A stretch of DNA of 64,000 bases from a virus. Of this stretch, positions 20,281 through 55,162 are shown one piece after another (the stretch's first letter is position 1; the number at the start of each line of letters is the position of its first letter). A model generated the notes under the pieces. That model saw only the letters and a list, made by a program, of their open reading frames with translations. It made no database searches and was not told the DNA's origin. The stretch lies in the IMG/VR virus record IMGVR_UViG_3300032053_000013, positions 1 to 64,000 of that record; one strand, written 5' to 3'. The translations under genes and the position numbers were made by a program.

Positions 20281-23218
<2,938 letters not shown>

Positions 23219-29628: not shown

Positions 29629-30245
29629 GAGTGCGACTCGTGTTCGCCAGGAAGGACGACTCGATCATCTCCAGGGCGATCTGCTGGTTCAGCCAGCGGA
29701 GGCGGGCGCCCGAGCGGAGGTGCTCCCATGTCATGGTGAAGTTCCAGCCGGGCGGGGTCTACGAGGGGGACTGGGCCTGCTTCGAGGCGATGGAACGAGG
29801 GGTGTGGGCGAGCCCCTACGACGTGGCCCTTGGGAAGCAGACCGTGGTGGCGGAGTTCGAGGCCGTGGTCTCGGACGACGCTGCCTACAAGGCCATGCGG
29901 GTCGCGCTCAACCGCTACCTCTCCTGGTACTACGACTTCTACGGGATCGGCCTCTGGGCCGTCTGGATCCTGGCGAGGCGGTGGTTCTGGACGCCCCTCC
30001 ACTGGCTCGGGGTAACCTTCCGGCCGGGGACGGCGAGCAAGGCGCTGTTCTGCTCCGGGCTCGCCCTCCAGGTCGTCAAACTCATGGAGCAGATGGACCC
30101 GTCGGCCGACCTCGGGATGAGGGGCCTGACCGCCAGGACGTCCACACCGCAGAACGAGATCGACGTCTGCTTCGACAGCCCGAAGGGGTGGAGGGAGGTC
30201 AAGACGGAGGAGAGGCTCCAGGAGGCCCTCTCCGCCAAACCTTGA
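29625..30245 (+). CDS. Permuted papain-like (YiiX/YaeF-type NlpC/P60) amidase/peptidase
   Basis: N-terminal CSHV (His), FEA, YDF.G, C-terminal LFCSGL (Cys). Confidence 0.7.
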   Translation: MRVRLVFARKDDSIISRAICWFSQRRRAPERRCSHVMVKFQPGGVYEGDWACFEAMERGVWASPYDVALGKQTVVAEFEAVVSDDAAYKAMRVALNRYLSWYYDFYGIGLWAVWILARRWFWTPLHWLGVTFRPGTASKALFCSGLALQVVKLMEQMDPSADLGMRGLTARTSTPQNEIDVCFDSPKGWREVKTEERLQEALSAKP

Positions 30246-30295: not shown

Positions 30296-30649
30296 ATGGG
30301 AGCCTCCGAAGGGACCTACCAGCCGGAACGCGGCTTCATGAGCGGGGCCGGGGACTTCGAGATCGTGGCGGGGGCGCGGTACCACCCCTACCGCCTCGCC
30401 ACGATCCTCTGGGAGCGCAAGAATGTCACCCCGGTCGACATCTTCATCGAGGTGCTCGACGGGGACAAGGTCTACGGGGTCGACCAGGTGCTCGGCTGCG
30501 CCTGCAAGCTCTACGCGTGGCCGAACTCCGCGAGTCCCTTTCATGTCTGTCTCGTGCCTGACATGCGGGTGCGGTTCCGAGTGACCGGGGCCGTTGCCGG
30601 TGAGGTGCAGTCCGCCGTCATCGTGTGGGCGGAGCTGGGGGCCATCTGA
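30296..30649 (+). CDS. Hypothetical protein
   Basis: GGGAG RBS, directly before portal. Confidence 0.7.
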   Translation: MGASEGTYQPERGFMSGAGDFEIVAGARYHPYRLATILWERKNVTPVDIFIEVLDGDKVYGVDQVLGCACKLYAWPNSASPFHVCLVPDMRVRFRVTGAVAGEVQSAVIVWAELGAI

Positions 30650-30669
30650 CCCAAGGTTTGGGGGATACC

Positions 30670-32733
30670 ATGGAAGAAGGGATCAAGGAGACGCTCGGGG
30701 AGGCCCTGGTGGCCAAGGACGTCGGGCCCGAGAGCCTGGAGAGCATGGTGAAGGTTCTCCTCATCGGGGGCAACGACGTCGAGAAGGCGCGGAAGGAGGG
30801 CGGAGGCGACGAGGCCACGCCGGTCTCGAAGCAGCTCGGGGACTTCCAGCAGATAGTCGGGGAGTTCGTCCCGCCGCCGTTCAACCCCGGAATCTGGGCG
30901 CAGACACTCAAGATCAACACACGCCTCGCCAGGTGCATCCGGTCGTTCGCGAGGAACACCGTCGGGCTCGGGTGGGCCATCGAGCCGGTCCACACGATCA
31001 CGGAGGAGACGCCGGAGGAGGACAAGAAGGCGGTCGCGGAGCAGACCGAGGCCCTCCGGAAGTTCTTCGGCTACCCGAACCCGCTGATGCCGCTCACCGA
31101 GATCTTCTACCTGGAGAAGGTGGACGAGGAGGCGACGGGCAACGGGTACGTCGAGGTGGTGAGGAACAACGCGGGAAGGATCGTCCGGATGTTCCACGTG
31201 CCGTCGGTGACCATCCGCAAGCGGATCATCAAGGAGGGGAACCAGAGCGTGGTCTCCGGCTTCGTCCAGATCCGCGGGAGCCAGAAGAGGTACTTCAAGG
31301 ACTTCGGGGACAAAAAGGTCGTGGACGCGTTCTCGGGTAAGGCCTACGAGGGCCAGGGCGCGCTCCCGGCAGAAAAGCGGGCCACCGAGATCCTGCACTT
31401 CCTCATCTACGACCCGGGCAGCTCCTACTACGGGGCCCCGAGGTACACGCCCGCGGCGACGGCCATCGCCGGGAACCGGCAGGCGGCCATCAGGAACGTC
31501 AACTTCTTCGAGAACGACGCCGTCCCCCGCATGGCCCTCCTCGTGTCCGGTGGAAAGATCAACGCGGAGTCTATGCAGCAGATCGAGGACTTCGTGCGGG
31601 CCAAGGGGCGCGGGGTGGAGAACGCGCACCGGGTCATGATCGTCCAGGTCGAGCCCCTCAAGGTCGGGTTCCAGCAGCAGAACAAGGTCCAGGTCGAGCT
31701 GAAGCCCCTGACCGTCGGGGTCACCGAGGACGCCTCCTTCTCGCAGTACCGAGAGGCGAACGACGAGGAGGTCCGCGAGATCTTCGGGCTCGGGCAGATC
31801 TTCTTCAAGGCCGAGGGCGCGAACAGGGCGAACGCCCAGGTGTCGAGGGAGATCACCAACGAGCAGGAGCTGGAGCCGGACCGCCTGTCGAAGGAGTACG
31901 TGATCAACCAGACCATCGTCGAGGACATCCTCTTCCAGCTCATGGGGGCGACGGGCGACGAGACGGACGAGGAGGTCGAGGAGTTCAGGAAGAAGGTCCA
32001 CGTCCGGTTCCGCTTCGCCAGGCTCACGCTGACCGACCCGCTCGACGAGGCGAGGATGAACCAGATCTACGCATCCCTCGGCGCCATCACGCCGAACGAG
32101 ATGCGGGAGAGCATGGGCAAGGCACCGTACCCGAAGGACTACTTCTTCGCGGACAAGCCCCTCGCCATCGCCATGGCCGAGCTCACCGCGGGGCTCGCCC
32201 TGGCGATCTCGCAGAAGGAGGAGGAGGCGCCGCCGCAGCAGGGGATGCCCGGCATGGCCCCCGGCATGGAGGAGCAGCCCGGGGGGGAGCCCGCGCCCGA
32301 CTGGTACGACGAGGGAGGGGAGGAGGGCGGGGAGCCCGCCGAGGAGGGCGGGGAGCCGCTGCCGGACTGGTGGGAGGGGCAGAGGAGGGAGCGGCTCGGG
32401 TCGGTCCCGCCCGCCGCGGGGCAGCCGCCGGTTCCTGGGACGCTGCCGCTGCCGCCGCCGACCGGGCTGCCCGGGGCGCAGAACGCCCCCGGCATGGAGA
32501 CGCTCCCCCAGCCGGGCTCCTTCCAGAAGCCGCCGAGGAAGCCGAGGGTGCCGAAACCAACGAAGGGTATTGCGTCCCTCCACGGGGCGCGGGTATCATC
32601 GAGGAAGTACAAGTCTCTTACGCCGGATCCCCGAGCGATGGGGATCCTGATGGAGCTCATGAGCGACGTGCGGAGGTTCGCCCTCTCCTGGGCGGGCCTC
32701 TCGGGGGGAGAAGGAAATGGACAAGACCGCTGA
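30670..32733 (+). CDS. Portal protein (PBSX/HK97-like) with long Pro/Glu-rich C-terminal tail
   Basis: DEEATGNGYVEVVRN..GRI..MFHVP, EILHF..YDP.SSYYG.P, NFFENDAVP, AITPNEMR. Confidence 0.9.
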   Translation: MEEGIKETLGEALVAKDVGPESLESMVKVLLIGGNDVEKARKEGGGDEATPVSKQLGDFQQIVGEFVPPPFNPGIWAQTLKINTRLARCIRSFARNTVGLGWAIEPVHTITEETPEEDKKAVAEQTEALRKFFGYPNPLMPLTEIFYLEKVDEEATGNGYVEVVRNNAGRIVRMFHVPSVTIRKRIIKEGNQSVVSGFVQIRGSQKRYFKDFGDKKVVDAFSGKAYEGQGALPAEKRATEILHFLIYDPGSSYYGAPRYTPAATAIAGNRQAAIRNVNFFENDAVPRMALLVSGGKINAESMQQIEDFVRAKGRGVENAHRVMIVQVEPLKVGFQQQNKVQVELKPLTVGVTEDASFSQYREANDEEVREIFGLGQIFFKAEGANRANAQVSREITNEQELEPDRLSKEYVINQTIVEDILFQLMGATGDETDEEVEEFRKKVHVRFRFARLTLTDPLDEARMNQIYASLGAITPNEMRESMGKAPYPKDYFFADKPLAIAMAELTAGLALAISQKEEEAPPQQGMPGMAPGMEEQPGGEPAPDWYDEGGEEGGEPAEEGGEPLPDWWEGQRRERLGSVPPAAGQPPVPGTLPLPPPTGLPGAQNAPGMETLPQPGSFQKPPRKPRVPKPTKGIASLHGARVSSRKYKSLTPDPRAMGILMELMSDVRRFALSWAGLSGGEGNGQDR
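32570..32599 (+). promoter_or_regulatory. Putative promoter TTGCGT-N18-TATCAT inside the portal 3' end
   Basis: AT-rich patch just upstream of the protease gene. Confidence 0.45.
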
Positions 32734-34462
32734 GGCGACGGACGTCCGCAACGACGTGCAGTTCTCCTTCGACGCGGTGTGCGAGAAGGCGTGGCAGGAC
32801 GACAAGGGAAAGATGTTCGTCAGGGCCGTGGCCTCCGACGACCGTCTCGACCTCCAGCGCGACCGCATGAGCAACACCGCCCTGAGGAAGATGGCCGACG
32901 CGGCCAAGGCCGGCGTCCCCTTCCTGGAGACGCACCGCTCCGTGTTCGAGTTCGGGCGCACGGTGGGCGGGGACGTGGTGGACTTCGAGGAGGGCGGGAA
33001 GAAGGTCCAGAAGTTCGTGGTGGACGTGGAGCTGGACGGGGACTTCCCCCAGGCCAGGAAGCTCTTCAAGGAGGTGGCCGGGAAGACCTGCAAGCGCCAG
33101 CTCTCCATCGGCGGGAAGCTGAACCTCAAGAACAAGGAGTCCGTCCACGTCGAGATGACGCCGACCGGGCTCGCCCGCACGATCAACGACCTCGACCTCG
33201 ACCACATCGCCTCGACGCGGGAGAGCCAGGCGGCCAACCCGAGGACCTCCTTCACCGAGGCGATCTCGAAGGCGATCGACGAACATGAAAAAGGTCTTGC
33301 AAAAGAAATTGGGGGCGATCACAATGTACCGCAGATCCAGTTTTCACCTGAGGTGCTGGCTGCTTTCAAGCAGGTGGTCGAGATGGCCAAAGTTGGAGGC
33401 ATGAACATGGATAAGGTTCCGGAGACCCCGGCCACTCCGGCGACGCCCATGACGCCCGCCGAAACTCCCACGACTCCCGCGACCCCCGCGACCCCGAGCG
33501 AGACGGCCCCGGCCACCGAGGTCGCCTCCGAGAAGTGCGCGAAGGCCGCGACTCCCCGTAACACCGAGACCCCGAAGTCCCCGAAGACCCAGCCGGAGCA
33601 GGAGGCAGCCATGCCCGAGTCCAAGAAGTACGGACAGATGAAGGGCAGGGACGCCGCGACCGCCTGCGACCTCGCCAACGACATCGCGATCCTTCTCGCG
33701 AAGAAGAAGCCCTTCCCCGGCGCGGCCACCCCGTTCGGGTCCGAGGGGGAGAGCTCCGAGGACTCCGAGGAGATGACCGAGGAGGAGAAGGCGGTCGTCG
33801 ACTCCCTGTGGGCGACGCGCTTCGTCCTCGCGAAGGCCGTCTCCGGGGCGAGGCTCGGCGACGGGGAGAAGGCGTCCGTCTCCGACATCGTCGGTGCGGG
33901 CCCGTACGCCCCGCGCTCCGGCGCGAAGGGAACCAAGGGCCCGTTCATCCCCGACAAGGCCCCGAAGTCCGACACCACGGACATGGGCACGAGCGGGGTG
34001 ACCGACCACCGCAGGAACATCCAGGTCGGGGGCGAGATCAAGCCGACCGCCCCCACGGCGAAGTCGGCGCTGGACTTCACCCTCGACCAGCTCGAGGCGG
34101 CGAAGAAGATCCCGGCCGACCTCTCCACCTTCGGGAAGGCCCTGGGCGAGGAGATCGTCTCCAGGAACACCGAGATCACGAAGTCCATCATCGAGATGGT
34201 CGTCGAGAAGATGGCCACCGAGAGCGCGAGGTCCTCCACCGAGATCCAGAAGTCGGTCGAGGGGCTCGGGGACGTGGTCAACGACACCGCCAGGAAGATG
34301 GCCGCGATGGAGTCCCGGATCTCCAGGGTGGAGAAGGCCGGGGGCGTGAGCCAGAGCGGGCCGAAGGGCAAGGAAGACGTCGCCCCCGAGCGCGGGCGCA
34401 GGGGCGGAGTGTGGGGCGGCCTCTTCAACAGGGCCGCCGGGGACGCGCTGGCGAGGTACTAA
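32717..34462 (+). CDS. Prohead protease fused to scaffolding protein
   Basis: RAVASDDRLDLQRD, FLETH (His), LSIGG (Ser), LDHIA...ANPRT; C-terminal PEST-like and coiled-coil scaffold. Confidence 0.85.
   Translation: MDKTAEATDVRNDVQFSFDAVCEKAWQDDKGKMFVRAVASDDRLDLQRDRMSNTALRKMADAAKAGVPFLETHRSVFEFGRTVGGDVVDFEEGGKKVQKFVVDVELDGDFPQARKLFKEVAGKTCKRQLSIGGKLNLKNKESVHVEMTPTGLARTINDLDLDHIASTRESQAANPRTSFTEAISKAIDEHEKGLAKEIGGDHNVPQIQFSPEVLAAFKQVVEMAKVGGMNMDKVPETPATPATPMTPAETPTTPATPATPSETAPATEVASEKCAKAATPRNTETPKSPKTQPEQEAAMPESKKYGQMKGRDAATACDLANDIAILLAKKKPFPGAATPFGSEGESSEDSEEMTEEEKAVVDSLWATRFVLAKAVSGARLGDGEKASVSDIVGAGPYAPRSGAKGTKGPFIPDKAPKSDTTDMGTSGVTDHRRNIQVGGEIKPTAPTAKSALDFTLDQLEAAKKIPADLSTFGKALGEEIVSRNTEITKSIIEMVVEKMATESARSSTEIQKSVEGLGDVVNDTARKMAAMESRISRVEKAGGVSQSGPKGKEDVAPERGRRGGVWGGLFNRAAGDALARY
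33297..33325 (+). promoter_or_regulatory. Internal promoter TTGCAA-N17-CACAAT for nested scaffold ORF
   Basis: Conspicuous AT-rich stretch 33280-33370 within the CDS. Confidence 0.55.
33401..34462 (+). CDS. Nested in-frame scaffolding protein (internal start)
   Basis: GGAGG 33395-33399 before ATG 33401 and a second ATG at 33407, in frame with the protease. Confidence 0.55.
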   Translation: MNMDKVPETPATPATPMTPAETPTTPATPATPSETAPATEVASEKCAKAATPRNTETPKSPKTQPEQEAAMPESKKYGQMKGRDAATACDLANDIAILLAKKKPFPGAATPFGSEGESSEDSEEMTEEEKAVVDSLWATRFVLAKAVSGARLGDGEKASVSDIVGAGPYAPRSGAKGTKGPFIPDKAPKSDTTDMGTSGVTDHRRNIQVGGEIKPTAPTAKSALDFTLDQLEAAKKIPADLSTFGKALGEEIVSRNTEITKSIIEMVVEKMATESARSSTEIQKSVEGLGDVVNDTARKMAAMESRISRVEKAGGVSQSGPKGKEDVAPERGRRGGVWGGLFNRAAGDALARY

Positions 34463-34524
34463 GAGTCCGGCACGAGGAAGGTCGCCCCCGTTCGGGGCAT
34501 CAGATTTAGAAAAGAGGAGGATTC

Positions 34525-35925
34525 ATGGAGACGGCCGCTCAGGGAAGAGGGGTCGGCGGGCTGAACGAGGAGATGATCGAGAAGACGATCACCACGGGCG
34601 ACCTGCTGACAGGCGGTTTGCTGAACCCGATCCAGCAGACCCAGTTCATCACCCTCGTCAAGAAGTTCTCGGTGCTCCTGCCCATCAGCCGCTTCATCCG
34701 GATGCCGCGGCCGCTGATGGACGTGGACAAGCTCTGGATCGGGGAACCGGTCACGGAGTCCGTGGACGAGGCGACGGACACTGGCAACCTGGCCCGCGCC
34801 AAGTTCCAGCGCATCGTCCTCCGCGCCCAGAAGGTGCGGAGCGCCTGGAACATCACCACCGAGGTGCTCCAGGGGAACATCGAGCAGAACGAGTTCGAGC
34901 AGACCGTGATGAACACCATGGTCGAGAGGATCTCGACCGACCTCGAAGACCTCGCCATCAACGGCGACACCACCACGGTCGGGACCACGCCCCGCGACCG
35001 CCTGCTCCGCCGCCTCAACGGCTGGAACGTGGCGTCCGAGGGGGCGCACATCCTGGACGCCAAGGGGTCGAGCATCCAGAAGGGGCTCTTCTCCGAGATG
35101 AAGCGCCGGATGCCGAAGCAGTACAAGAACGACCCCGGCCTGCGCTGGCTGGTGGGCGACGCCATCGCCACCGACTGGGCGGACGTGGTCTCCGACCGCG
35201 GCACGATCCTCGGCGACGCCGCCCTCCAGGGCGCCGAGATGGCCCCGCTGGGCACCCCGATGATCCGCGTCCCGCTGATCCCGGACGACGCCCCGATCAC
35301 CATCCTCCAGGCGACCCGCGGCGAGTTCCTGGGCGCGGAGTTCGGCCCGTTCGTCATCTCCTCGACGAACGACACGATCAAGATGCAGGTGGACGGCGCC
35401 CCGGGCCCCGGAGTCACGATCGTGCTGACCCACGGGACGCTGAACACGGTCGAGGTCGCCAGGCAGATCAACGCCGCCCTGAAGGCCGCGATCGCCACCC
35501 TCGTCCAGGACGTGGCCCGCGACGACCGCGAAGGCCGCCTCCTGATGGAGAGCCCGGTGGTGGGTGCCGCGAGCTCGATCACCCTCATGTCGGTGGCGAC
35601 GGGCGTGCAGGCCTACACCACGCTCGGCCTCCTCGGCGCTCCCCCGTTCCCCGGACCGCCGCCGTTCTGGCCGGTGGCGAACGTCACCCACAGCGGCGCG
35701 GCGGCCGGCACGGCCAACACGGTGTACGAGGGGTCGTACATCTGGCTGGTGAACCCGAAGAACTTCGTGTGGGGCATCCTCGACGGGACCCGCATCTTCA
35801 CGGAGTTCAACAAGAACACCGACCAGATCGAGACGATCGTGTACAACCAGGTGGACGCCCAGGTCGAGAACGTCGACGCCTGCGTCAAGGCGAAGAACAT
35901 CCGGCGCCGCACGCTGGTCATCTGA
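34525..35925 (+). CDS. Major capsid protein (HK97 fold) with a ~150 aa insertion
   Basis: GAGGAGG RBS; IEKTITTGDLLTGGLLNPIQQTQFI, DLEDLAINGD, LVNPKNFVWGI; followed by a terminator. Confidence 0.9.
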   Translation: METAAQGRGVGGLNEEMIEKTITTGDLLTGGLLNPIQQTQFITLVKKFSVLLPISRFIRMPRPLMDVDKLWIGEPVTESVDEATDTGNLARAKFQRIVLRAQKVRSAWNITTEVLQGNIEQNEFEQTVMNTMVERISTDLEDLAINGDTTTVGTTPRDRLLRRLNGWNVASEGAHILDAKGSSIQKGLFSEMKRRMPKQYKNDPGLRWLVGDAIATDWADVVSDRGTILGDAALQGAEMAPLGTPMIRVPLIPDDAPITILQATRGEFLGAEFGPFVISSTNDTIKMQVDGAPGPGVTIVLTHGTLNTVEVARQINAALKAAIATLVQDVARDDREGRLLMESPVVGAASSITLMSVATGVQAYTTLGLLGAPPFPGPPPFWPVANVTHSGAAAGTANTVYEGSYIWLVNPKNFVWGILDGTRIFTEFNKNTDQIETIVYNQVDAQVENVDACVKAKNIRRRTLVI

Positions 35926-49427: not shown

Positions 49428-50216
49428 ATGAAGAAGATCAGCGAAAGCACTGCGGCCAGGATCGCGGACCTCTACAGGGAGGGGCACTCCTCCTACAAGA
49501 TAGCCGAGATGCTGGGGGTGGGGCACAGTGCCGCGAGCAAGTACGCGAGGTGGCTCAGGATCTCCAGGACGAGAAGCGCGGCAAGCGTCCTCGCCCGGTT
49601 GAGGGACACGGAGATCAACGTCGAGTTCTTCAAGGAGTGGAGTCCCAACCTCGCATATCTTCTCGGAATCATCTGGACAGACGGATGCCTCGGGAAGACT
49701 ACTCGGGGGGAACAGGTGATCCTCTCGATGAAGGAGTCGGAACTCCTTGGGAAGATCGGGGAAGCCACGGGGGCCAAGGTCTCGCAGCACAGGAATCGAA
49801 AGGAGTGGATCTGGACGATTCGATTCAGCCTTTTGACGGTCGTTTCCTGGTTCAAGGATAGGGGACTCACGGGCAGGAAATCCTTCACGGTCGAATGGCC
49901 GAAGGGGTTGCCGGAGGGCCTGGAGATTTCTTTCGTTCGGGGGCTCATAGATGGGGACGGGTCGTTCGGGATCGACAAGAGGAACGGGTCTCTGATGTTC
50001 GGGTTCGTCTCGGCCTCGGAGGTCTTCGCAAGGCAGATGAGGGAGTGGCTCGGGGCGCGGGTTGCCGGAGGGAGCTTCTTCTGCGAAAAGGGTAGGTACT
50101 GGAGAATACGGTACGGCGGTCGGGGGGCAGAGAAGATCCAAGAGATGCTGTCTCCGAAGGATGGGGAGTGGGGGCTCGATAGGAAATGGAAGATGTCCTC
50201 TGGAAGTTGCCGATAG
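49428..50216 (+). CDS. Free-standing LAGLIDADG homing endonuclease with N-terminal HTH
   Basis: YKIAEMLGVGHSAASKY HTH; AYLLGIIWTDGC and FVRGLIDGDGS motifs; more A/T-rich than flanks. Confidence 0.9.
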   Translation: MKKISESTAARIADLYREGHSSYKIAEMLGVGHSAASKYARWLRISRTRSAASVLARLRDTEINVEFFKEWSPNLAYLLGIIWTDGCLGKTTRGEQVILSMKESELLGKIGEATGAKVSQHRNRKEWIWTIRFSLLTVVSWFKDRGLTGRKSFTVEWPKGLPEGLEISFVRGLIDGDGSFGIDKRNGSLMFGFVSASEVFARQMREWLGARVAGGSFFCEKGRYWRIRYGGRGAEKIQEMLSPKDGEWGLDRKWKMSSGSCR

Positions 50217-50596
50217 CGATTGTGCTCGTAGAGGCGGTCGTTGAGATCTGCGCCGAGGGGGAGATTTTCGAGCCCCTCAGAGCATGGCTCGCCGGGAGGG
50301 GAGATAAGCCCCGCAAGATCGGTGTGTTCGTGCGTTGCCCCTACTGCATGTCGGTTTGGATGGCAGTCGGAGCGGCCTACCTGCTCCAGGTCATGGGGGT
50401 CTTCGGGTGGATGGGGTGGTTCGAGCCGGTCCTGTGGGGATTTTTGATCCACCGGGCGTCGAATCTGTGGCACGAGGTCGTGTCGAGGCATCTGGGGCGG
50501 GTGCCTTTCACCCTCTTCATGCGGACCTGGAGGCACGAGGAGGTCGAGGCGAAGCCGGAGGAGAGGAAGGGGGATGGTGGAGCCGCTACAGGGTAA
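50186..50596 (+). CDS. DUF1360-like membrane protein (intact copy)
   Basis: FE.LR.W....G.FVRCPYCMSVW plus hydrophobic helices. Confidence 0.75.
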   Translation: MEDVLWKLPIAIVLVEAVVEICAEGEIFEPLRAWLAGRGDKPRKIGVFVRCPYCMSVWMAVGAAYLLQVMGVFGWMGWFEPVLWGFLIHRASNLWHEVVSRHLGRVPFTLFMRTWRHEEVEAKPEERKGDGGAATG

Positions 50597-51725
50597 CTCG
50601 ATGCCGTTCTCCGAGCGGCGATATTACGGATGCTACCGTGGCACGGTCGCGGACAACCTCGACCCCCTGCGCCTCGGGCGGGTGAAGTGCAGGTGCCACG
50701 AGGTCCTGGGGCTGGAGATGACGACGGACTGGGCGGCCTACAAGGGGGGGCCGTTCGGGGGCGACCTGGACTGCGGGGTCTTCGCCCCGCCGGACGTCGG
50801 CGCGGCGGTGTTCGTCGAGTTCGAGAGCGGGGACGTGAACCGGCCCCTCTTCACGGGTACCTGGTGGGGGCAGAGGAAGGGGATGCCGCCGGAGACCCCG
50901 GCCCTGGCGAGGGCCGACGGGCAGACGTGCTGGAAGACAGACCCGAGCACCTCGGCCCCGAAGGGAATCGACCAGTTCAGGAGCGCGACCAACGAGGACC
51001 AATGCCAGCCCATCTCGCCCCTGCGGGCGAAGGGGCCGCCGCAGTACCCGTGCAACAAGGTCCTCAAGACGAAGAACAACGGGATCACGGTCGAGATCGA
51101 CGACACGCCGGGGAGGGGCAGGATCCACATCTGGCACGGCCCGTCGAAGTCGTGGGTCGAGATCGACTCCGGGGGCGAGCTCTCGGTCAGGGTGGCCGGG
51201 AAGTCCTACGTCCTCGTGGAGGCGGACGACCGGCACCACGTGAAGGGGGGTCGCCACGCCCTGGTCGAGGGGGACGAGACGGTCCGCGTCGGGAAGGACC
51301 GGTGGCTGAGGGTCAAGGCGAACGAGACGCGGGAGGTCGGGGGCCTGCGTGACACGTTCGTCACGGGCAAGGAGCAGAGGGTGAACCAGGCGGGGCTCGA
51401 CGGGTTCGTCGTGGGGGAGGAGCAGAGGGTGGACCAGGGGGGGCTGAAGCACTGGACCATCGGGGACCGGGTGGACGTCGTGGTCGGGAACTGGACGCAG
51501 TGGGTCGTCGGGAACCTCCAGACCAACGTGTTCGGGAACTACGACCGCATCGCGGCGGGCAACATCAGCGACGTCGCCAGCGCGATCGCCCACTCGAAGG
51601 GGACCCCGACGGGGGCGCCTCCGGTCCCGCCGGTCCAGCCCCAGCCCCCGCAGCCGGTCCAGCCCCCGGGGTGCCCGGTCACCCCGCCCGACTTCACGTG
51701 CCCCCCGACGCCCCCGGCCCCGTAG
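50574..51725 (+). CDS. Central spike (T4 gp5 / VgrG-like): OB fold plus beta-helix
   Basis: YRGTVADNLDPLRLGRVK, PPDVGAAVFVEFESGDVNRPLFTG; 8-residue VxGxxxxx repeats; Pro-rich tail. Confidence 0.9.
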   Translation: MVEPLQGNSMPFSERRYYGCYRGTVADNLDPLRLGRVKCRCHEVLGLEMTTDWAAYKGGPFGGDLDCGVFAPPDVGAAVFVEFESGDVNRPLFTGTWWGQRKGMPPETPALARADGQTCWKTDPSTSAPKGIDQFRSATNEDQCQPISPLRAKGPPQYPCNKVLKTKNNGITVEIDDTPGRGRIHIWHGPSKSWVEIDSGGELSVRVAGKSYVLVEADDRHHVKGGRHALVEGDETVRVGKDRWLRVKANETREVGGLRDTFVTGKEQRVNQAGLDGFVVGEEQRVDQGGLKHWTIGDRVDVVVGNWTQWVVGNLQTNVFGNYDRIAAGNISDVASAIAHSKGTPTGAPPVPPVQPQPPQPVQPPGCPVTPPDFTCPPTPPAP

Positions 51726-51735
51726 GAGGATTACC

Positions 51736-52260
51736 ATGCCGGTGTCGCCGATCTCTAACGCCCAGGAGTGGAGGGCGGTCGTGGCCGACAGGGAGGCCCG
51801 CGCCTGCCTGCGGAGGATCGCGCTCACTGTCCTCTCCGACCTCGACCCGTCCAGGGTGAGGGCGTACAGGCTGACGGTCGAGGCGTCGAGGTCCCTCCAG
51901 AGGAGGCAGGGGGCCCGCATCGCGGCCATCGACTCGGAGGTCGGGTGCATCGTGTCCCTCATGGAGCGGCTCCCCGACTCTGGCGAGCCAAAGGAGTTCC
52001 GCCGTATGATGGAGGAGCGGCGCAACGCCCTCCTGGCGGAGCGCGGGGAGGTAGTCCAGGCCCTGGAGAAGCTCCCGACGATGATCTCGGGGTCGGAGCG
52101 CATCCTGAGGGAGGTCGAGGGGCAGGTCGCCAACGCGGCCTTCCTCAAGGGGGTCATAGAGGAGGCGGACAGTGCCGAAGGTGGCGTTCCTGGGGTCGCC
52201 GACCAGCCACGGGGCCCCGGTGATAACGGGCCCCCTCCCGACGCCGCACGTGGCGTGTGA
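51736..52260 (+). CDS. Coiled-coil hypothetical protein
   Basis: AGGAGG RBS. Confidence 0.65.
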   Translation: MPVSPISNAQEWRAVVADREARACLRRIALTVLSDLDPSRVRAYRLTVEASRSLQRRQGARIAAIDSEVGCIVSLMERLPDSGEPKEFRRMMEERRNALLAERGEVVQALEKLPTMISGSERILREVEGQVANAAFLKGVIEEADSAEGGVPGVADQPRGPGDNGPPPDAARGV

Positions 52261-52459
52261 CTGCGGGGTCATGGCGAAGGCGACGGACATGGTGGCCGGG
52301 CACTACCACGGCCTGGTCTGGGTGCCGCCGAACCCCTTCCCGGCGGGGTCGCTGGTGGCGGCGATAGAGGGGCTGGGAGTGCTGAGGGTGGGCGACACGG
52401 CGGGCTGAGGGGCGCAGATAATCCCGGGGCCGTGCGTCCCGAACACCGAGAGCGACTGA
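52172..52459 (+). CDS. PAAR spike-tip protein with in-frame TGA (52406-52408) at the conserved C-terminal Cys; ends at 52408 if not recoded
   Basis: AFLGSPTSHGAPVITG, GHYHG, LRVGDTAG*GAQIIPGPCVPNTESD*; readthrough restores the third PAAR repeat and fills the intergenic gap. Confidence 0.75.
52409..52440 (+). other. Stem-loop immediately 3' of the PAAR in-frame TGA (SECIS-like/readthrough element candidate)
   Basis: GGGGCGCA 52409-52416 pairs with TGCGTCCC 52433-52440 (one G-U). Confidence 0.45.
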
Positions 52460-52471
52460 TCGGAGGTTCCG

Positions 52472-52945
52472 ATGTCCGGCATCTACGACTTCTTCCAGGG
52501 CCTGACGTCCTCGCAGTGGGACTCGATGGTCAGGGTGGTCCAGGACCTCCAGGACAGCGCGTCCGCGGAGAGGATGGACAGCCTCCGCAACTTCCTGGCG
52601 TCCCTCACCAGGGAGATCGACGCCGTGAACCGGAGGAGGGACGCCCTCGGGCAGAAGGTCGAGAACATCGAGGTCATCCTGACGCACCTCGACGCCCACA
52701 TCAGGGCGAACCCCGGCAACATGGAGGCCACCCTCCTCCGGTCCATCCTGATCCTGTGGAAGAGCCAGCTCAAGATCGAGGTGGCGGACCTCCGCCCGTC
52801 GGAGAAGCTGGACAAGAAGTACGACACGGAGCGGAAGCGGGAGCTCCTGGCCCAGCTCCAGGTCCTCGTCTCCTCGCTTAGCGTCGAGATGGGCGAGGCC
52901 AAGGCCGAGCGGGCGTCGGCGCCGCAGGAGGCGAGGGGGGCGTGA
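52472..52945 (+). CDS. Coiled-coil hypothetical protein
   Basis: GGAGG RBS; GTGA-coupled to the gp25-like gene. Confidence 0.7.
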   Translation: MSGIYDFFQGLTSSQWDSMVRVVQDLQDSASAERMDSLRNFLASLTREIDAVNRRRDALGQKVENIEVILTHLDAHIRANPGNMEATLLRSILILWKSQLKIEVADLRPSEKLDKKYDTERKRELLAQLQVLVSSLSVEMGEAKAERASAPQEARGA

Positions 52946-53385
52946 GGAGGACGACGGACATCATCGGGCGCGGGTGGGGCTTCCCCTTCCGGTTCACCAC
53001 CGTCGGCAGGGTGAGCAGGCTCGTGGGGGTCTCGGACGCGTCCTCTACCGAGAAGATCGGGATGGCGATCCGGCAGATCCTCGGGACGAGGGTCGGAAGC
53101 CGGGTGGTCGACCGGGACTTCGGGTCCGACCTCCGGGGGATCCTCTTCATGCCCATCGACGAGGTTTCCATCGCCAGGGTGCGGTTCGCGGTCACCTCGG
53201 CGATCCAGACCTGGGAGAAGAGGGTGGACGTCCTGGGAGTGGACGTGAACGCCGACCGGGTGAAGGATGGGGTCATCGACGTGACGGTGTACTACAAGAT
53301 CATCTCCACCCAGAAGGAGGGGAACCTCGTCTATCCTCTGTATATTTCGGAAGAAATGCGCGTGACCGGGCAGATAAACGTGTAG
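52942..53385 (+). CDS. Baseplate wedge/sheath initiator (T4 gp25 / P2 W-like)
   Basis: IGRGWGFPFRF, IRQILGTRVGSRV..RDFGSDL, AIQTWEKRV, NLVYPLY. Confidence 0.9.
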   Translation: MRRTTDIIGRGWGFPFRFTTVGRVSRLVGVSDASSTEKIGMAIRQILGTRVGSRVVDRDFGSDLRGILFMPIDEVSIARVRFAVTSAIQTWEKRVDVLGVDVNADRVKDGVIDVTVYYKIISTQKEGNLVYPLYISEEMRVTGQINV

Positions 53386-53395
53386 GAGGCGTCCC

Positions 53396-55162
53396 TTGAC
53401 CACGATCAGCAAGGTCACGAACAGGATCCCCCCGATCGACTACACCTCCCGCGACTTCGAGGCGATCGCGCAGGACATGGTGCGGGCGATCCCGTTCATG
53501 GCCCCGGAGTGGACGGACAACAACCTCTCCGACTTCGGGATCGTCCTCCAGAGGCTCGTGGCCATGGTGTCCGACTGCCTCCACTTCTACCTGGACCGCA
53601 CGGCGAACGAGGCGTTCCTGCCCACGGCGATCACGAGGAGGAGCGTCATCAACCTCCTCCAGCTCATCAACTTCACCCTGAACAGCGCGGCCCCGGCCTC
53701 GGTGGACGTCCGGTTCCACATGGCGAACGCGCTCCCCGGCGACCTCCTGATCCCGAAGGGGACGGAGAGCCAGACCACGGCGGACGCGACGGACGGCCCG
53801 ATCTACTTCGAGACGTCGGCGGACGCGGTGATCCCCGCCGGGGACCTGGAGGTGACGGCGCCCGCGGTGGAGGGCCGGACCAGGACGGAGACCCTCGGGG
53901 TGAGCCTCGGGATCGCCCGCCAGAGGTTCGATGTCTCCGGGTCGCCCGTCATCGACGGGAGCCTCGCCATCGCGATCGACGAGGGGGTCGGGCCGGAGGC
54001 GTGGTCCGAGGTGGAGTCGTTCGCCTACGCCGGGCCGGACGACAAGGTGTTCACGACCATCCGGGACGAGAACGACAAGATCACGGTCCTGTTCGGGGAC
54101 AACGCCCAGGGGAAGATCCCGGACAACGGGGCGATCATCGAGTCCGAGTACCGGGTGGGAGGGGGGCTGCGGGGGAACGTGCCGGAGGGGACGATCGTCA
54201 CGGTGAACGACGTGCCCACCTACAACGCGGTGCCGGTCAGCCTGGCGGTCACGAACGACCTGGCCGCGAGCGGCGGCGAGGACGCCATGACCATCGAGGA
54301 GGCGAAGGTCCTCGGGCCCCAGAGCCTCCTGGCCCTCAACAGGGCGGTGACGGCCCTCGACTTCAAGACGCTGGCGGAGGCCTTTCCCGGCGTCGCCAGG
54401 GCGTCCGTCGTGGTCGGGGCCTACCCCGTGGACGTGTCGACGGGGTGCTGCTGCCTCGTCAGGCTCATCATCGCCCCCACCGGAGGGGGGACGCCGTCGT
54501 CCCAGCTCAAGTCCGACCTCGCGGACTACCTCGAGGCCCGGAAGATGATAGGGACGTGCCTGGAGATCGTGGACCCGACCTACCAGCCGGTGGACGGGGC
54601 CGGTACGATCTACATGGCCGGGAACTTCTCCACGGAGCAGGGGGCGCAGGACGTGGAGGACTCCCTCTCCGCCTTCTTCGACCTGGGGAGCGAGTACGTC
54701 GGGTTCGGGCAGTCCCTCTACCTGTCCGACTTCTACCACCTCCTGGAGTCCATCTCCGGGGTGGACCACGTCGACCTGACGGAGCTGACCCGGAGGCCGG
54801 TGCCCGTATGCTCGCCATGGACGTCGGACTGCGGGCTGACGAACTTCGTGGTCGGGCCCTCCGCCAAGAACGAGGGGTGGACGGTGACCGCGACCTCCCC
54901 GACGACCTTCTCCGTGGTGGGGTCGGTCAGCGGGCCCCAGAACCCCGGGACGGTAGGGGTGGGCTACACGACCAACGGCGGGGAGGTGTCGTTCAAGATG
55001 GAGTGCACGAGCGGGACCCTGGTGGTGGGCGAGAAGTGCCAGTTCACTACCAGCCCGAAGGTCGCCAACGTGCCGATGAAGCCGCTGGAGGTCATGACCA
55101 AGGGCGTCTTCACGTTCAGCTTCGTCGGAGGGGCCAGGCCCCAGAGGGTGTGCCCGGTATGA
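53396..55162 (+). CDS. Baseplate J / T4 gp6-like protein
   Basis: IDYTSRDFEAI, WTD..LSDFG, FGDNAQGKIP, YRVGGG..GNV, ASGGEDA, RAVTALDF. Confidence 0.9.
   Translation: MTTISKVTNRIPPIDYTSRDFEAIAQDMVRAIPFMAPEWTDNNLSDFGIVLQRLVAMVSDCLHFYLDRTANEAFLPTAITRRSVINLLQLINFTLNSAAPASVDVRFHMANALPGDLLIPKGTESQTTADATDGPIYFETSADAVIPAGDLEVTAPAVEGRTRTETLGVSLGIARQRFDVSGSPVIDGSLAIAIDEGVGPEAWSEVESFAYAGPDDKVFTTIRDENDKITVLFGDNAQGKIPDNGAIIESEYRVGGGLRGNVPEGTIVTVNDVPTYNAVPVSLAVTNDLAASGGEDAMTIEEAKVLGPQSLLALNRAVTALDFKTLAEAFPGVARASVVVGAYPVDVSTGCCCLVRLIIAPTGGGTPSSQLKSDLADYLEARKMIGTCLEIVDPTYQPVDGAGTIYMAGNFSTEQGAQDVEDSLSAFFDLGSEYVGFGQSLYLSDFYHLLESISGVDHVDLTELTRRPVPVCSPWTSDCGLTNFVVGPSAKNEGWTVTATSPTTFSVVGSVSGPQNPGTVGVGYTTNGGEVSFKMECTSGTLVVGEKCQFTTSPKVANVPMKPLEVMTKGVFTFSFVGGARPQRVCPV

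Follow-up and report, generated by a model that had tools for sequence, protein, structure and literature searches.

The window considered here, the first 64 kb (64,000 nucleotides) of the IMG/VR virus record IMGVR_UViG_3300032053_000013, encodes a PAAR spike-tip protein whose open reading frame (ORF) contains an in-frame UGA codon at positions 52406–52408, and insertion of selenocysteine (Sec) at this codon is probably its best explanation. The record represents an uncultured phage from sediment and is a linear sequence of 122,285 bp (approximately 82% complete, 66–67% GC). Sec is favored because it accounts for the exclusive use of TGA and for the fact that this codon occupies the place of a Cys ligand in two clades, as well as for the repeated TGA/Cys switches and for a hairpin that is conserved in position but divergent in sequence. 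An earlier note on this DNA had proposed either Sec or a programmed read-through at the site, and this proposal is supported by the conserved TGA, the occurrence of Cys homologs, the apparently translated extension and the downstream hairpin. New selenoprotein families have been called from metagenomes when two or more different sequences conserve the in-frame TGA, two or more homologs have Cys and a stem-loop is located just 3' of the codon (PMC1976440); the family examined here includes 14 distinct TGA sequences and at least two Cys homologs, and displays coding past the TGA and a stem-loop.

The internal UGA and the codons beyond it

The full-length PAAR ORF spans positions 52172–52459 of the plus strand and comprises 95 residues plus the terminator when the internal UGA is read through. 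It begins with a GTG codon at 52172, preceded by GGAGG, and contains 78 residues (ending in ...LRVGDTAG) up to the internal TGA. The latter is the candidate Sec codon, residue 79, and coincides with the invariant Zn-ligand Cys column of the family. It is followed on the same strand by a 16-codon extension (GAQIIPGPCVPNTESD, 52409–52456) that completes the third PAAR repeat and in whose frame no start codon occurs after the TGA. The true terminator (52457–52459) is TGA in the window, with TAG or TAA in relatives, and directly behind it are the ribosome-binding site GGAGG (52462–52466) and the ATG (52472) of the next gene, which together cover 52462–52474 on the plus strand. The features reported earlier, namely that the frame stays open past LRVGDTAG-TGA to the TGA at 52457–52459 and up to the ribosome-binding site at 52462, and that His13, His44 and His46 are present, can be read directly from the DNA and from the read-through protein. 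The PAAR gene shares its first 29 codons, in a different frame, with a 174-aa gene located upstream (51736–52260), and the same overlap is called in relatives (in L001, 9541–10062 versus 9974).

A comparison with the Pfam PAAR_motif profile (PF05488; curated cut-off 27 bits) gives 19.0 bits for the 78-residue product, which covers positions 2–61 of the profile, and 29.5 bits for the read-through protein, which covers positions 2–69 of 70. A profile search of the whole 122-kb record retrieves 52172–52459 as its sole PF05488 match, with one internal TGA.

Relatives were found by means of protein database fragments (P0002–P0004) and of homologs of the neighboring gp25-like gene, and the DNA around each of them was fetched from IMG/VR, JGI, ENA and two bins of metagenome-assembled genomes (MAGs). 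The codon that the earlier note had placed at the Cys position is TGA in 21/21 related loci, which represent 14 distinct nucleotide sequences belonging to two clades and ranging from 53 to 70% GC; the real terminators of these ORFs are TAG (11), TGA (6) and TAA (4). Conservation of the TGA at 21 independently assembled loci is far beyond chance, and an assembly error is rejected because not one of them departs from TGA. Entries for the gene in the protein database are all fragments terminating at the TGA (P0002–P0004), and when 1.84 billion representative proteins were searched with a profile, additional 50%-identity clusters came up whose last residue immediately precedes the site (P0010, P0011, P0016, P0131). 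The DNA of these clusters (L120, L121, L122) also has TGA there, after which come a conserved extension (GATI[LIV]...[FL][AM]E) and TAA.

Every homolog without TGA has Cys at the aligned column (L007/8, L009, L095, L096, L099/100, L101, as well as P0005–P0009 and P0013), in some cases within the motif VGDVC[QE]CGAVVLP (L007/8, L009, L096), and the Cys-type relatives are more distant members of this virus group, with gp25-like and baseplate-J proteins 50–70% identical to those of the window. The examination of relatives for TGA/Cys pairs at this codon, which had been suggested as a check, thus revealed both states, with 21 TGA loci on one side and Cys homologs on the other. Seven columns are invariant in an alignment of 15 sequences: the TGA/Cys site, Thr11, His13, His44, Asp75, Gly80 and Ala81. 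The gp25-like protein is too short for its tree to resolve relationships and baseplate J was used instead. The baseplate-J tree contains two separate TGA clades, group A, which includes the window (support 100), and group D (support 100), which joins the TGA lineages L098, L121, and L122 with the Cys-bearing L101; the minimum number of TGA/Cys state changes on this tree is three. As judged from the sequences, this switching corresponds to the Sec/Cys interchange that is typical of selenoprotein families.

The codons after the TGA bear the signature of a translated region. In a set of seven sequences from group A, the 16 codons that follow the TGA have a dN/dS of 0.27, codons 2–78 one of 0.25, and pN/pS exceeds 1 in the other two frames of the extension; because the in-frame value is close to the upstream level and the other frames show no such constraint, the substitution pattern indicates that the extension is translated. 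Its length varies across lineages only by whole codons (15, 16, 16, and 19). At the protein level the middle of the extension, which corresponds to the hairpin region, varies in sequence and length whereas both ends are conserved. A simple nonsense mutation, the fallback offered in the earlier note, is ruled out by the TGA in 14 distinct sequences, the purifying selection on the extension and the existence of Cys homologs.

The AlphaFold2 model (pLDDT 83, pTM 0.77) of the 95-residue product indicates that read-through completes a PAAR fold of the conical three-repeat beta type. The top six Foldseek matches to the model are all full-length PAAR tips, five of them at E ≤ 0.001, with TM scores of 0.60–0.75: 9vyi (phage P1), 6p1z_D (phiKZ gp163.1), 9f4b (Klebsiella phage baseplate), 4jiw_D (E. 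coli c1882, TM 0.73/0.75 over 94 columns), 4jiv_D (V. cholerae VCA0105) and 4ku0_D (T4 gp5.4). The phmmer program aligns the TGA site with the Cys within RVGDAVDCGG of 4jiv_D (motif RVGDxxxCG). Sequence, predicted fold and gene context identify the gene as a member of the PAAR family. The candidate metal ligands of the apex are His13 and His44, both invariant, His46 in group A, and the column occupied by UGA or Cys. The Zn of PAAR tips is held by one Cys together with three His, and in the PAAR protein of EAEC the substitution at the equivalent position, C74A, reduces the Zn content and abolishes T6SS function (PMC10715212). Since the C-terminal Cys is a Zn ligand and its replacement abolishes function, the residue inserted at the UGA should be competent as a metal ligand.

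The use of TGA elsewhere in the record is that of an ordinary stop codon. A crude gene call based on GC at third codon positions (GC3) identified 114 ORFs in the whole record, 63 of which end in TGA, the commonest terminator, and this agrees with the earlier observation that other genes end normally in TGA and that the code is not changed genome-wide. When every TGA with a high-GC3 open frame both before and after it was examined, 52406 emerged as the only clear internal case; the remaining matches are adjacent genes in the same frame, antisense frames and one site at window position 21659, which lies inside a repetitive region rich in His, Arg and Thr and is probably a frame artifact of the repeat. 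An alternative genetic code with TGA as a sense codon (tables 4/25) is rejected, as TGA is the commonest stop and no other convincing internal TGA occurs.

The RNA hairpin downstream of the UGA

A conserved hairpin that resembles a selenocysteine insertion sequence (SECIS) is located at 52425–52441 of the plus strand and consists of the stem CGGGGC (52425–52430)/GUCCCG (52436–52441) and the loop CGUGC (52431–52435). It starts 17 nt beyond the UGA, and its loop G (52432) is 24 nt after the A of this codon. The RNAalifold consensus of eight group-A sequences is a 6-bp hairpin with the loop CGUG[C/U] and includes one compensatory pair (G.U in four sequences and U-A in four); this hairpin is kept in 8/9 group-A sequences. 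The 8-bp stem pointed out previously (52409–52416/52433–52440, within 52409–52440 on the plus strand) does exist in the window, with one G.U pair, where it is part of the minimum free energy fold and competes with the conserved hairpin. As a SECIS candidate it is rejected, as amino-acid replacements break it in relatives; the conserved element is 52425–52430/52436–52441. The Rfam scan of positions 30000–64000 assigned neither SECIS nor any other family to the site, and the 71-nt region concerned folds no better than its shuffles (z = +1.13).

Hairpins occur at the same place in all TGA lineages although their sequences are unrelated, those of group D being built from quite different codons. 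With the U of the UGA as nucleotide 1, the group-A hairpin has its stem at 20–25/31–36 and its loop, CGUGC, at 26–30 (62–67% GC in the two genomes measured). The stem is of 7 bp in L098 (17–23/28–34, loop CGGG, 67% GC) and L120 (17–23/27–33, loop GGC, 70% GC) and of 9 bp in L121 (16–24/29–37, loop GGUC, 54.5% GC), and it is interrupted in L122 (18–23/33–38 plus 25–26/30–31, loop GUU, 53% GC). A loop G lies 22–24 nt after the UGA in 5/5 TGA lineages. In L101, the sister of L098 that has Cys, two of the seven stem pairs are gone. Bacterial SECIS elements have a stem of 6–8 bp and a conserved loop G approximately 20 nt downstream of the UGA (PMC4605307); with stems of 6, 7, 7, and 9 bp and one interrupted stem, the geometry of the present hairpins agrees with this description.

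Synonymous sites inside the group-A hairpin are invariant or compatible with pairing. Three synonymous codons are frozen in nine group-A sequences, those of Gly80 (GGG), Pro87 (CCG, the G of which is the loop G) and Pro90 (CCG). Among invariant residues, 3/5 fourfold-degenerate columns after the UGA are themselves invariant vs 1/21 before it (one-sided Fisher test, approximately 0.014, a value that is only indicative as the sequences are related). A 7-bp hairpin of another kind (GGGCAGU/ACUGCCC, loop GGU) is present directly after the Cys codon in the Cys-type loci of one sister group, L007 (2388–2404), L009, and L096, too close for SECIS spacing.

Decoding, host and alternative explanations

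If Sec is inserted, the product of the gene would be a 95-residue PAAR spike tip in which the C-terminal metal ligand is Sec instead of Cys. During late expression in a Sec-competent bacterial host, the ribosome would arrive at the UGA at 52406–52408, the hairpin at 52425–52441 would act as a bacterial-type SECIS and recruit the SelB.GTP.Sec-tRNA(Sec) complex of the host, Sec would be inserted and translation would continue over 16 codons to the stop at 52457. Should release factor 2 (RF2) win instead, a 78-residue fragment devoid of the last PAAR repeat and of the fourth metal ligand would be produced, which would presumably be useless; as there is one PAAR per spike and virion, a low efficiency of Sec insertion may be tolerable. 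Decoding by SelB and tRNA(Sec), the presence of both in the host and the binding of the tip metal by Sec are all inferred. On a wider scale, though with slightly less assurance, it seems likely that a widespread clade of sediment myoviruses of ~90–120 kb carries Sec in the spike apex by means of host SelB/tRNA(Sec) and a SECIS within the ORF, so that the output of infectious particles would be tied to the Sec competence of the host and to the supply of selenium, with Sec/Cys switching accompanying a change of host.

The hairpin was also assessed statistically. Strict hairpins, i.e., those with at least 6 uninterrupted pairs and a loop of 3–5 nt that starts at nucleotides 24–27 and has G in one of its first two positions, occur in 4/5 TGA lineages vs 0/5 Cys lineages (background, 2.5–4.4% of positions in the same loci). 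The folding energy of nucleotides 13–42 relative to all positions of each locus gives a combined p of 0.003 for the TGA lineages and of 0.39 for the Cys lineages, a signal that comes mainly from two genomes of lower GC content (p = 0.001 and 0.045). Several points weigh against the Sec interpretation: the definition of the strict hairpin was set post hoc, with the data already seen; the energy of the hairpin in the high-GC window is unremarkable by itself (p = 0.21 relative to the locus); loose hairpins of the bacterial SECIS type, at least equally stable, occur at approximately 13–18% of in-frame positions in this genome; and the group-A stem is built from conserved Pro and Gly codons, so that constraints on protein and RNA are confounded, and has a single covarying pair. 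To these must be added that tRNA-Sec, selB, and selD were not found in the phage record (82% complete), and that two archaeal-labeled MAG bins in which the closest genome matches reside did not contain them above the cut-off.

ARAGORN detects only tRNA-Arg(CCU) and a doubtful tRNA-Ala in the record. The latter ('tRNA-Ala(CGC)', 93 nt with a long extra arm, 33640–33732, minus strand) lies antisense inside the ORF at 32717–34462 and is probably spurious. Two tRNA-shaped RNAs immediately precede tRNA-Arg(CCU) (record 102841–103117, equal to L104:18841–19117), both with a 7-bp acceptor stem and a CCA end: the first is 127 nt long and has a 9-bp 'anticodon' stem that encloses two hairpins (−65 kcal/mol, z = −4.6), and the second, of 70 nt, has no recognizable anticodon arm. 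As UGA decoders these units are rejected; neither contains a 7-nt loop that would present UCA as anticodon, and Rfam classes neither as a tRNA. A syntenic relative (G002:C1, 116 kb, 61.6% GC) carries an array of ten tRNAs at 34353–35415 (L115; Asp, Tyr, Pro, Phe, four Leu, His, and Ser) that is not among the ARAGORN calls in the record, and none of these ten tRNAs reads UGA. Given that the phage record is devoid of Sec genes and that no UGA-reading tRNA is present, decoding must rely on the host.

Comparisons with cultured phages by blastn and tblastn gave only ~28% identity, to phages of Streptomyces and Bacillus, and this value concerns the protein encoded at 30625–32733 (which matches annotated portal proteins) and baseplate J. 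The closest genome matches are contigs of 109 and 116 kb, L019 (CAZKEV010000002.1) and L020 (CAYNQC010000001.1), which are found in MAG bins labeled Methanomicrobiales and Bathyarchaeia. Their location in archaeal bins is probably due to mis-binning, because the phage has genes of bacterial type (RecA, DnaB-like helicase, PolA-type exonuclease, and class II ribonucleotide reductase) and GGAGG ribosome sites, and because an 83-nt long-arm tRNA-Tyr occurs in the relative and the hairpin directly follows the UGA and is not in an untranslated region (UTR). Long-arm (type II) tRNA-Tyr is a bacterial trait. Archaeal SECIS elements are located in UTRs, not directly after the UGA (PMC1976440). Among 401 sampled genomes of a single bacterial phylum, none had a PAAR gene with TGA, and five further genomes gave no match at all to the search.

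Other explanations of the UGA have been considered. A programmed or leaky read-through by a near-cognate tRNA (Trp or Cys), possibly stimulated by the hairpin, would generate a fixed small fraction of full-length protein independently of Sec, and is rather unlikely. UGA is the leakiest stop codon, one PAAR per virion would be enough, and such a mechanism is in line with a translated extension, with the presence of a hairpin and with the absence of Sec genes from the phage. It thus explains why the extension is translated, but neither the location of the stop on the ligand Cys nor the SECIS-like geometry: a regulatory stop could be anywhere in the gene, yet two separate clades have it exactly on the codon of the Cys ligand, where the only alternative is Cys. 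Moreover, ordinary read-through driven by a bacterial stem-loop is not known to us, and Trp is the residue usually incorporated when bacteria misread UGA. With Trp inserted, the protein would lack a ligand that PAAR function cannot do without (PMC10715212), and the size, loop G and distance of the hairpin fit a SECIS (PMC4605307). A second route, recoding of the SECIS/SelB type with Cys as the inserted residue, supplied by a tRNA(Sec)-like tRNA that the host would charge with Cys, predicts the same UGA/Cys pairs and SECIS-like hairpin, is compatible with the tolerance of relatives to Cys and, on sequence alone, cannot be separated from Sec. Cys-charged tRNA(Sec)-like tRNAs have been proposed in some anaerobic bacteria. 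This route is nonetheless improbable, with no such tRNA found on the phage or its relative and a host trait required that is rarer than Sec decoding.

The absence of any recoding, either because the 78-residue product is real or because the locus is a pseudogene or an assembly error, has very little probability. Gene callers end the protein at the TGA (P0002–P0004, P0010–P0016) and the truncated product still reaches 19 bits with the PAAR profile, but the TGA is the same at 21 loci, the extension is selected in its own frame only, completes the predicted fold and carries a ligand, and the record contains no second PAAR gene. Just as improbable is an archaeal host that decodes the UGA with an archaeal Sec system or with none. 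It would agree with the presence of L019 and L020 in Methanomicrobiales and Bathyarchaeia bins; these bins, however, lack Sec genes above the cut-off, the contigs are virus-sized (109–116 kb), the phage genes are of bacterial type, the relative encodes a long-arm tRNA-Tyr, and archaeal SECIS elements reside in UTRs (PMC1976440).

Known systems and gene neighborhood

Sec as the residue encoded by this UGA would relate the gene to several known systems. The resemblance to bacterial Sec-UGA/SECIS pairs read by SelB, such as E. coli fdhF, includes the UGA at a Cys-equivalent position predicted to be a metal ligand, the hairpin within the ORF just 3' of it (here with a stem of 6–9 bp and the loop G ~22–24 nt downstream), the Cys homologs and the use of TGA as an ordinary stop elsewhere. 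Unlike those, the gene is viral and encodes a structural virion protein rather than a redox enzyme, the machinery would be borrowed from the host with no Sec genes nearby, and binding by SelB is presumed. With the PAAR tips of PF05488 (4JIV, 4JIW, 4KU0, 9VYI, 6P1Z) the 95-aa protein shares its predicted fold, three repeats, the candidate His ligands, the RVGDxxxCG motif and its gene neighbors; it differs in that the codon of the ligand Cys is UGA and in the group-A tail PGPC[VD]PNT..D, the codons of which double as the hairpin.

Cellular organisms have selenoproteins, and so do a few eukaryotic viruses with captured cellular enzymes. Among the latter are the glutathione peroxidase homologs of poxviruses, captured cellular redox enzymes with a SECIS in the 3'-UTR; as in that case, a viral gene would depend on the Sec machinery of the host, but here it encodes a native structural protein of a phage and the hairpin is within the ORF. 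In phages with genome-wide reassignment, TAG or TGA is read as sense in late genes. The stop inside a late structural gene is common to both situations, whereas in the present phage a single site is concerned and TGA also ends the same ORF 48 nt later. No description of a phage selenoprotein or of a structural virion selenoprotein was found in the literature searched, and the main text of a 2026 database paper on 111 bacterial selenoprotein families/subfamilies names neither phage nor PAAR.

If Sec is indeed inserted, the Sec recoding machinery of the host would be open to hijacking by phages, Sec would be able to act as a ligand in a membrane-piercing tip, and the gene would constitute a built-in host-range marker, as the host must be Sec-competent. 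The many natural Sec/Cys sister pairs would, in addition, offer a clean system to study what selenium provides at a structural metal site. Gene callers would then be systematically truncating PAAR genes with UGA, the database entries of which are fragments of 69–97 aa.

The PAAR gene belongs to a baseplate cluster transcribed from the plus strand in which the order spike, PAAR, gp25-like protein and baseplate J is the same in relatives. The gene at 50574–51725 encodes a gp5/VgrG-like central spike with an OB fold (PF04717, 3.5e-15) and a gp5 C-terminal trimerization domain (PF22178, 2.4e-07), and is the expected seat of the PAAR tip. After its beta-helix this spike has a Pro-rich tail (…PPVPPVQPQPPQPVQPPGCPVTPPDFTCPPTPPAP), which is unusual for a PAAR-seating surface. 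Downstream of the PAAR ORF, the gene that starts at 52472 encodes a protein of 157 aa to which the Pfam search assigned no family, and it is followed by the genes for the gp25-like baseplate wedge (52942–53385) and for baseplate J (53396–55162), both recognized by the Pfam search and used as markers for finding relatives and for the trees. Elsewhere in the phage, a free-standing LAGLIDADG-like ORF is present at window positions 49428–50216, and a C-5 cytosine DNA methylase (L104:4279–6891, record 88279–90891) is split by an intein (Hint/Intein_splicing) with a LAGLIDADG domain.

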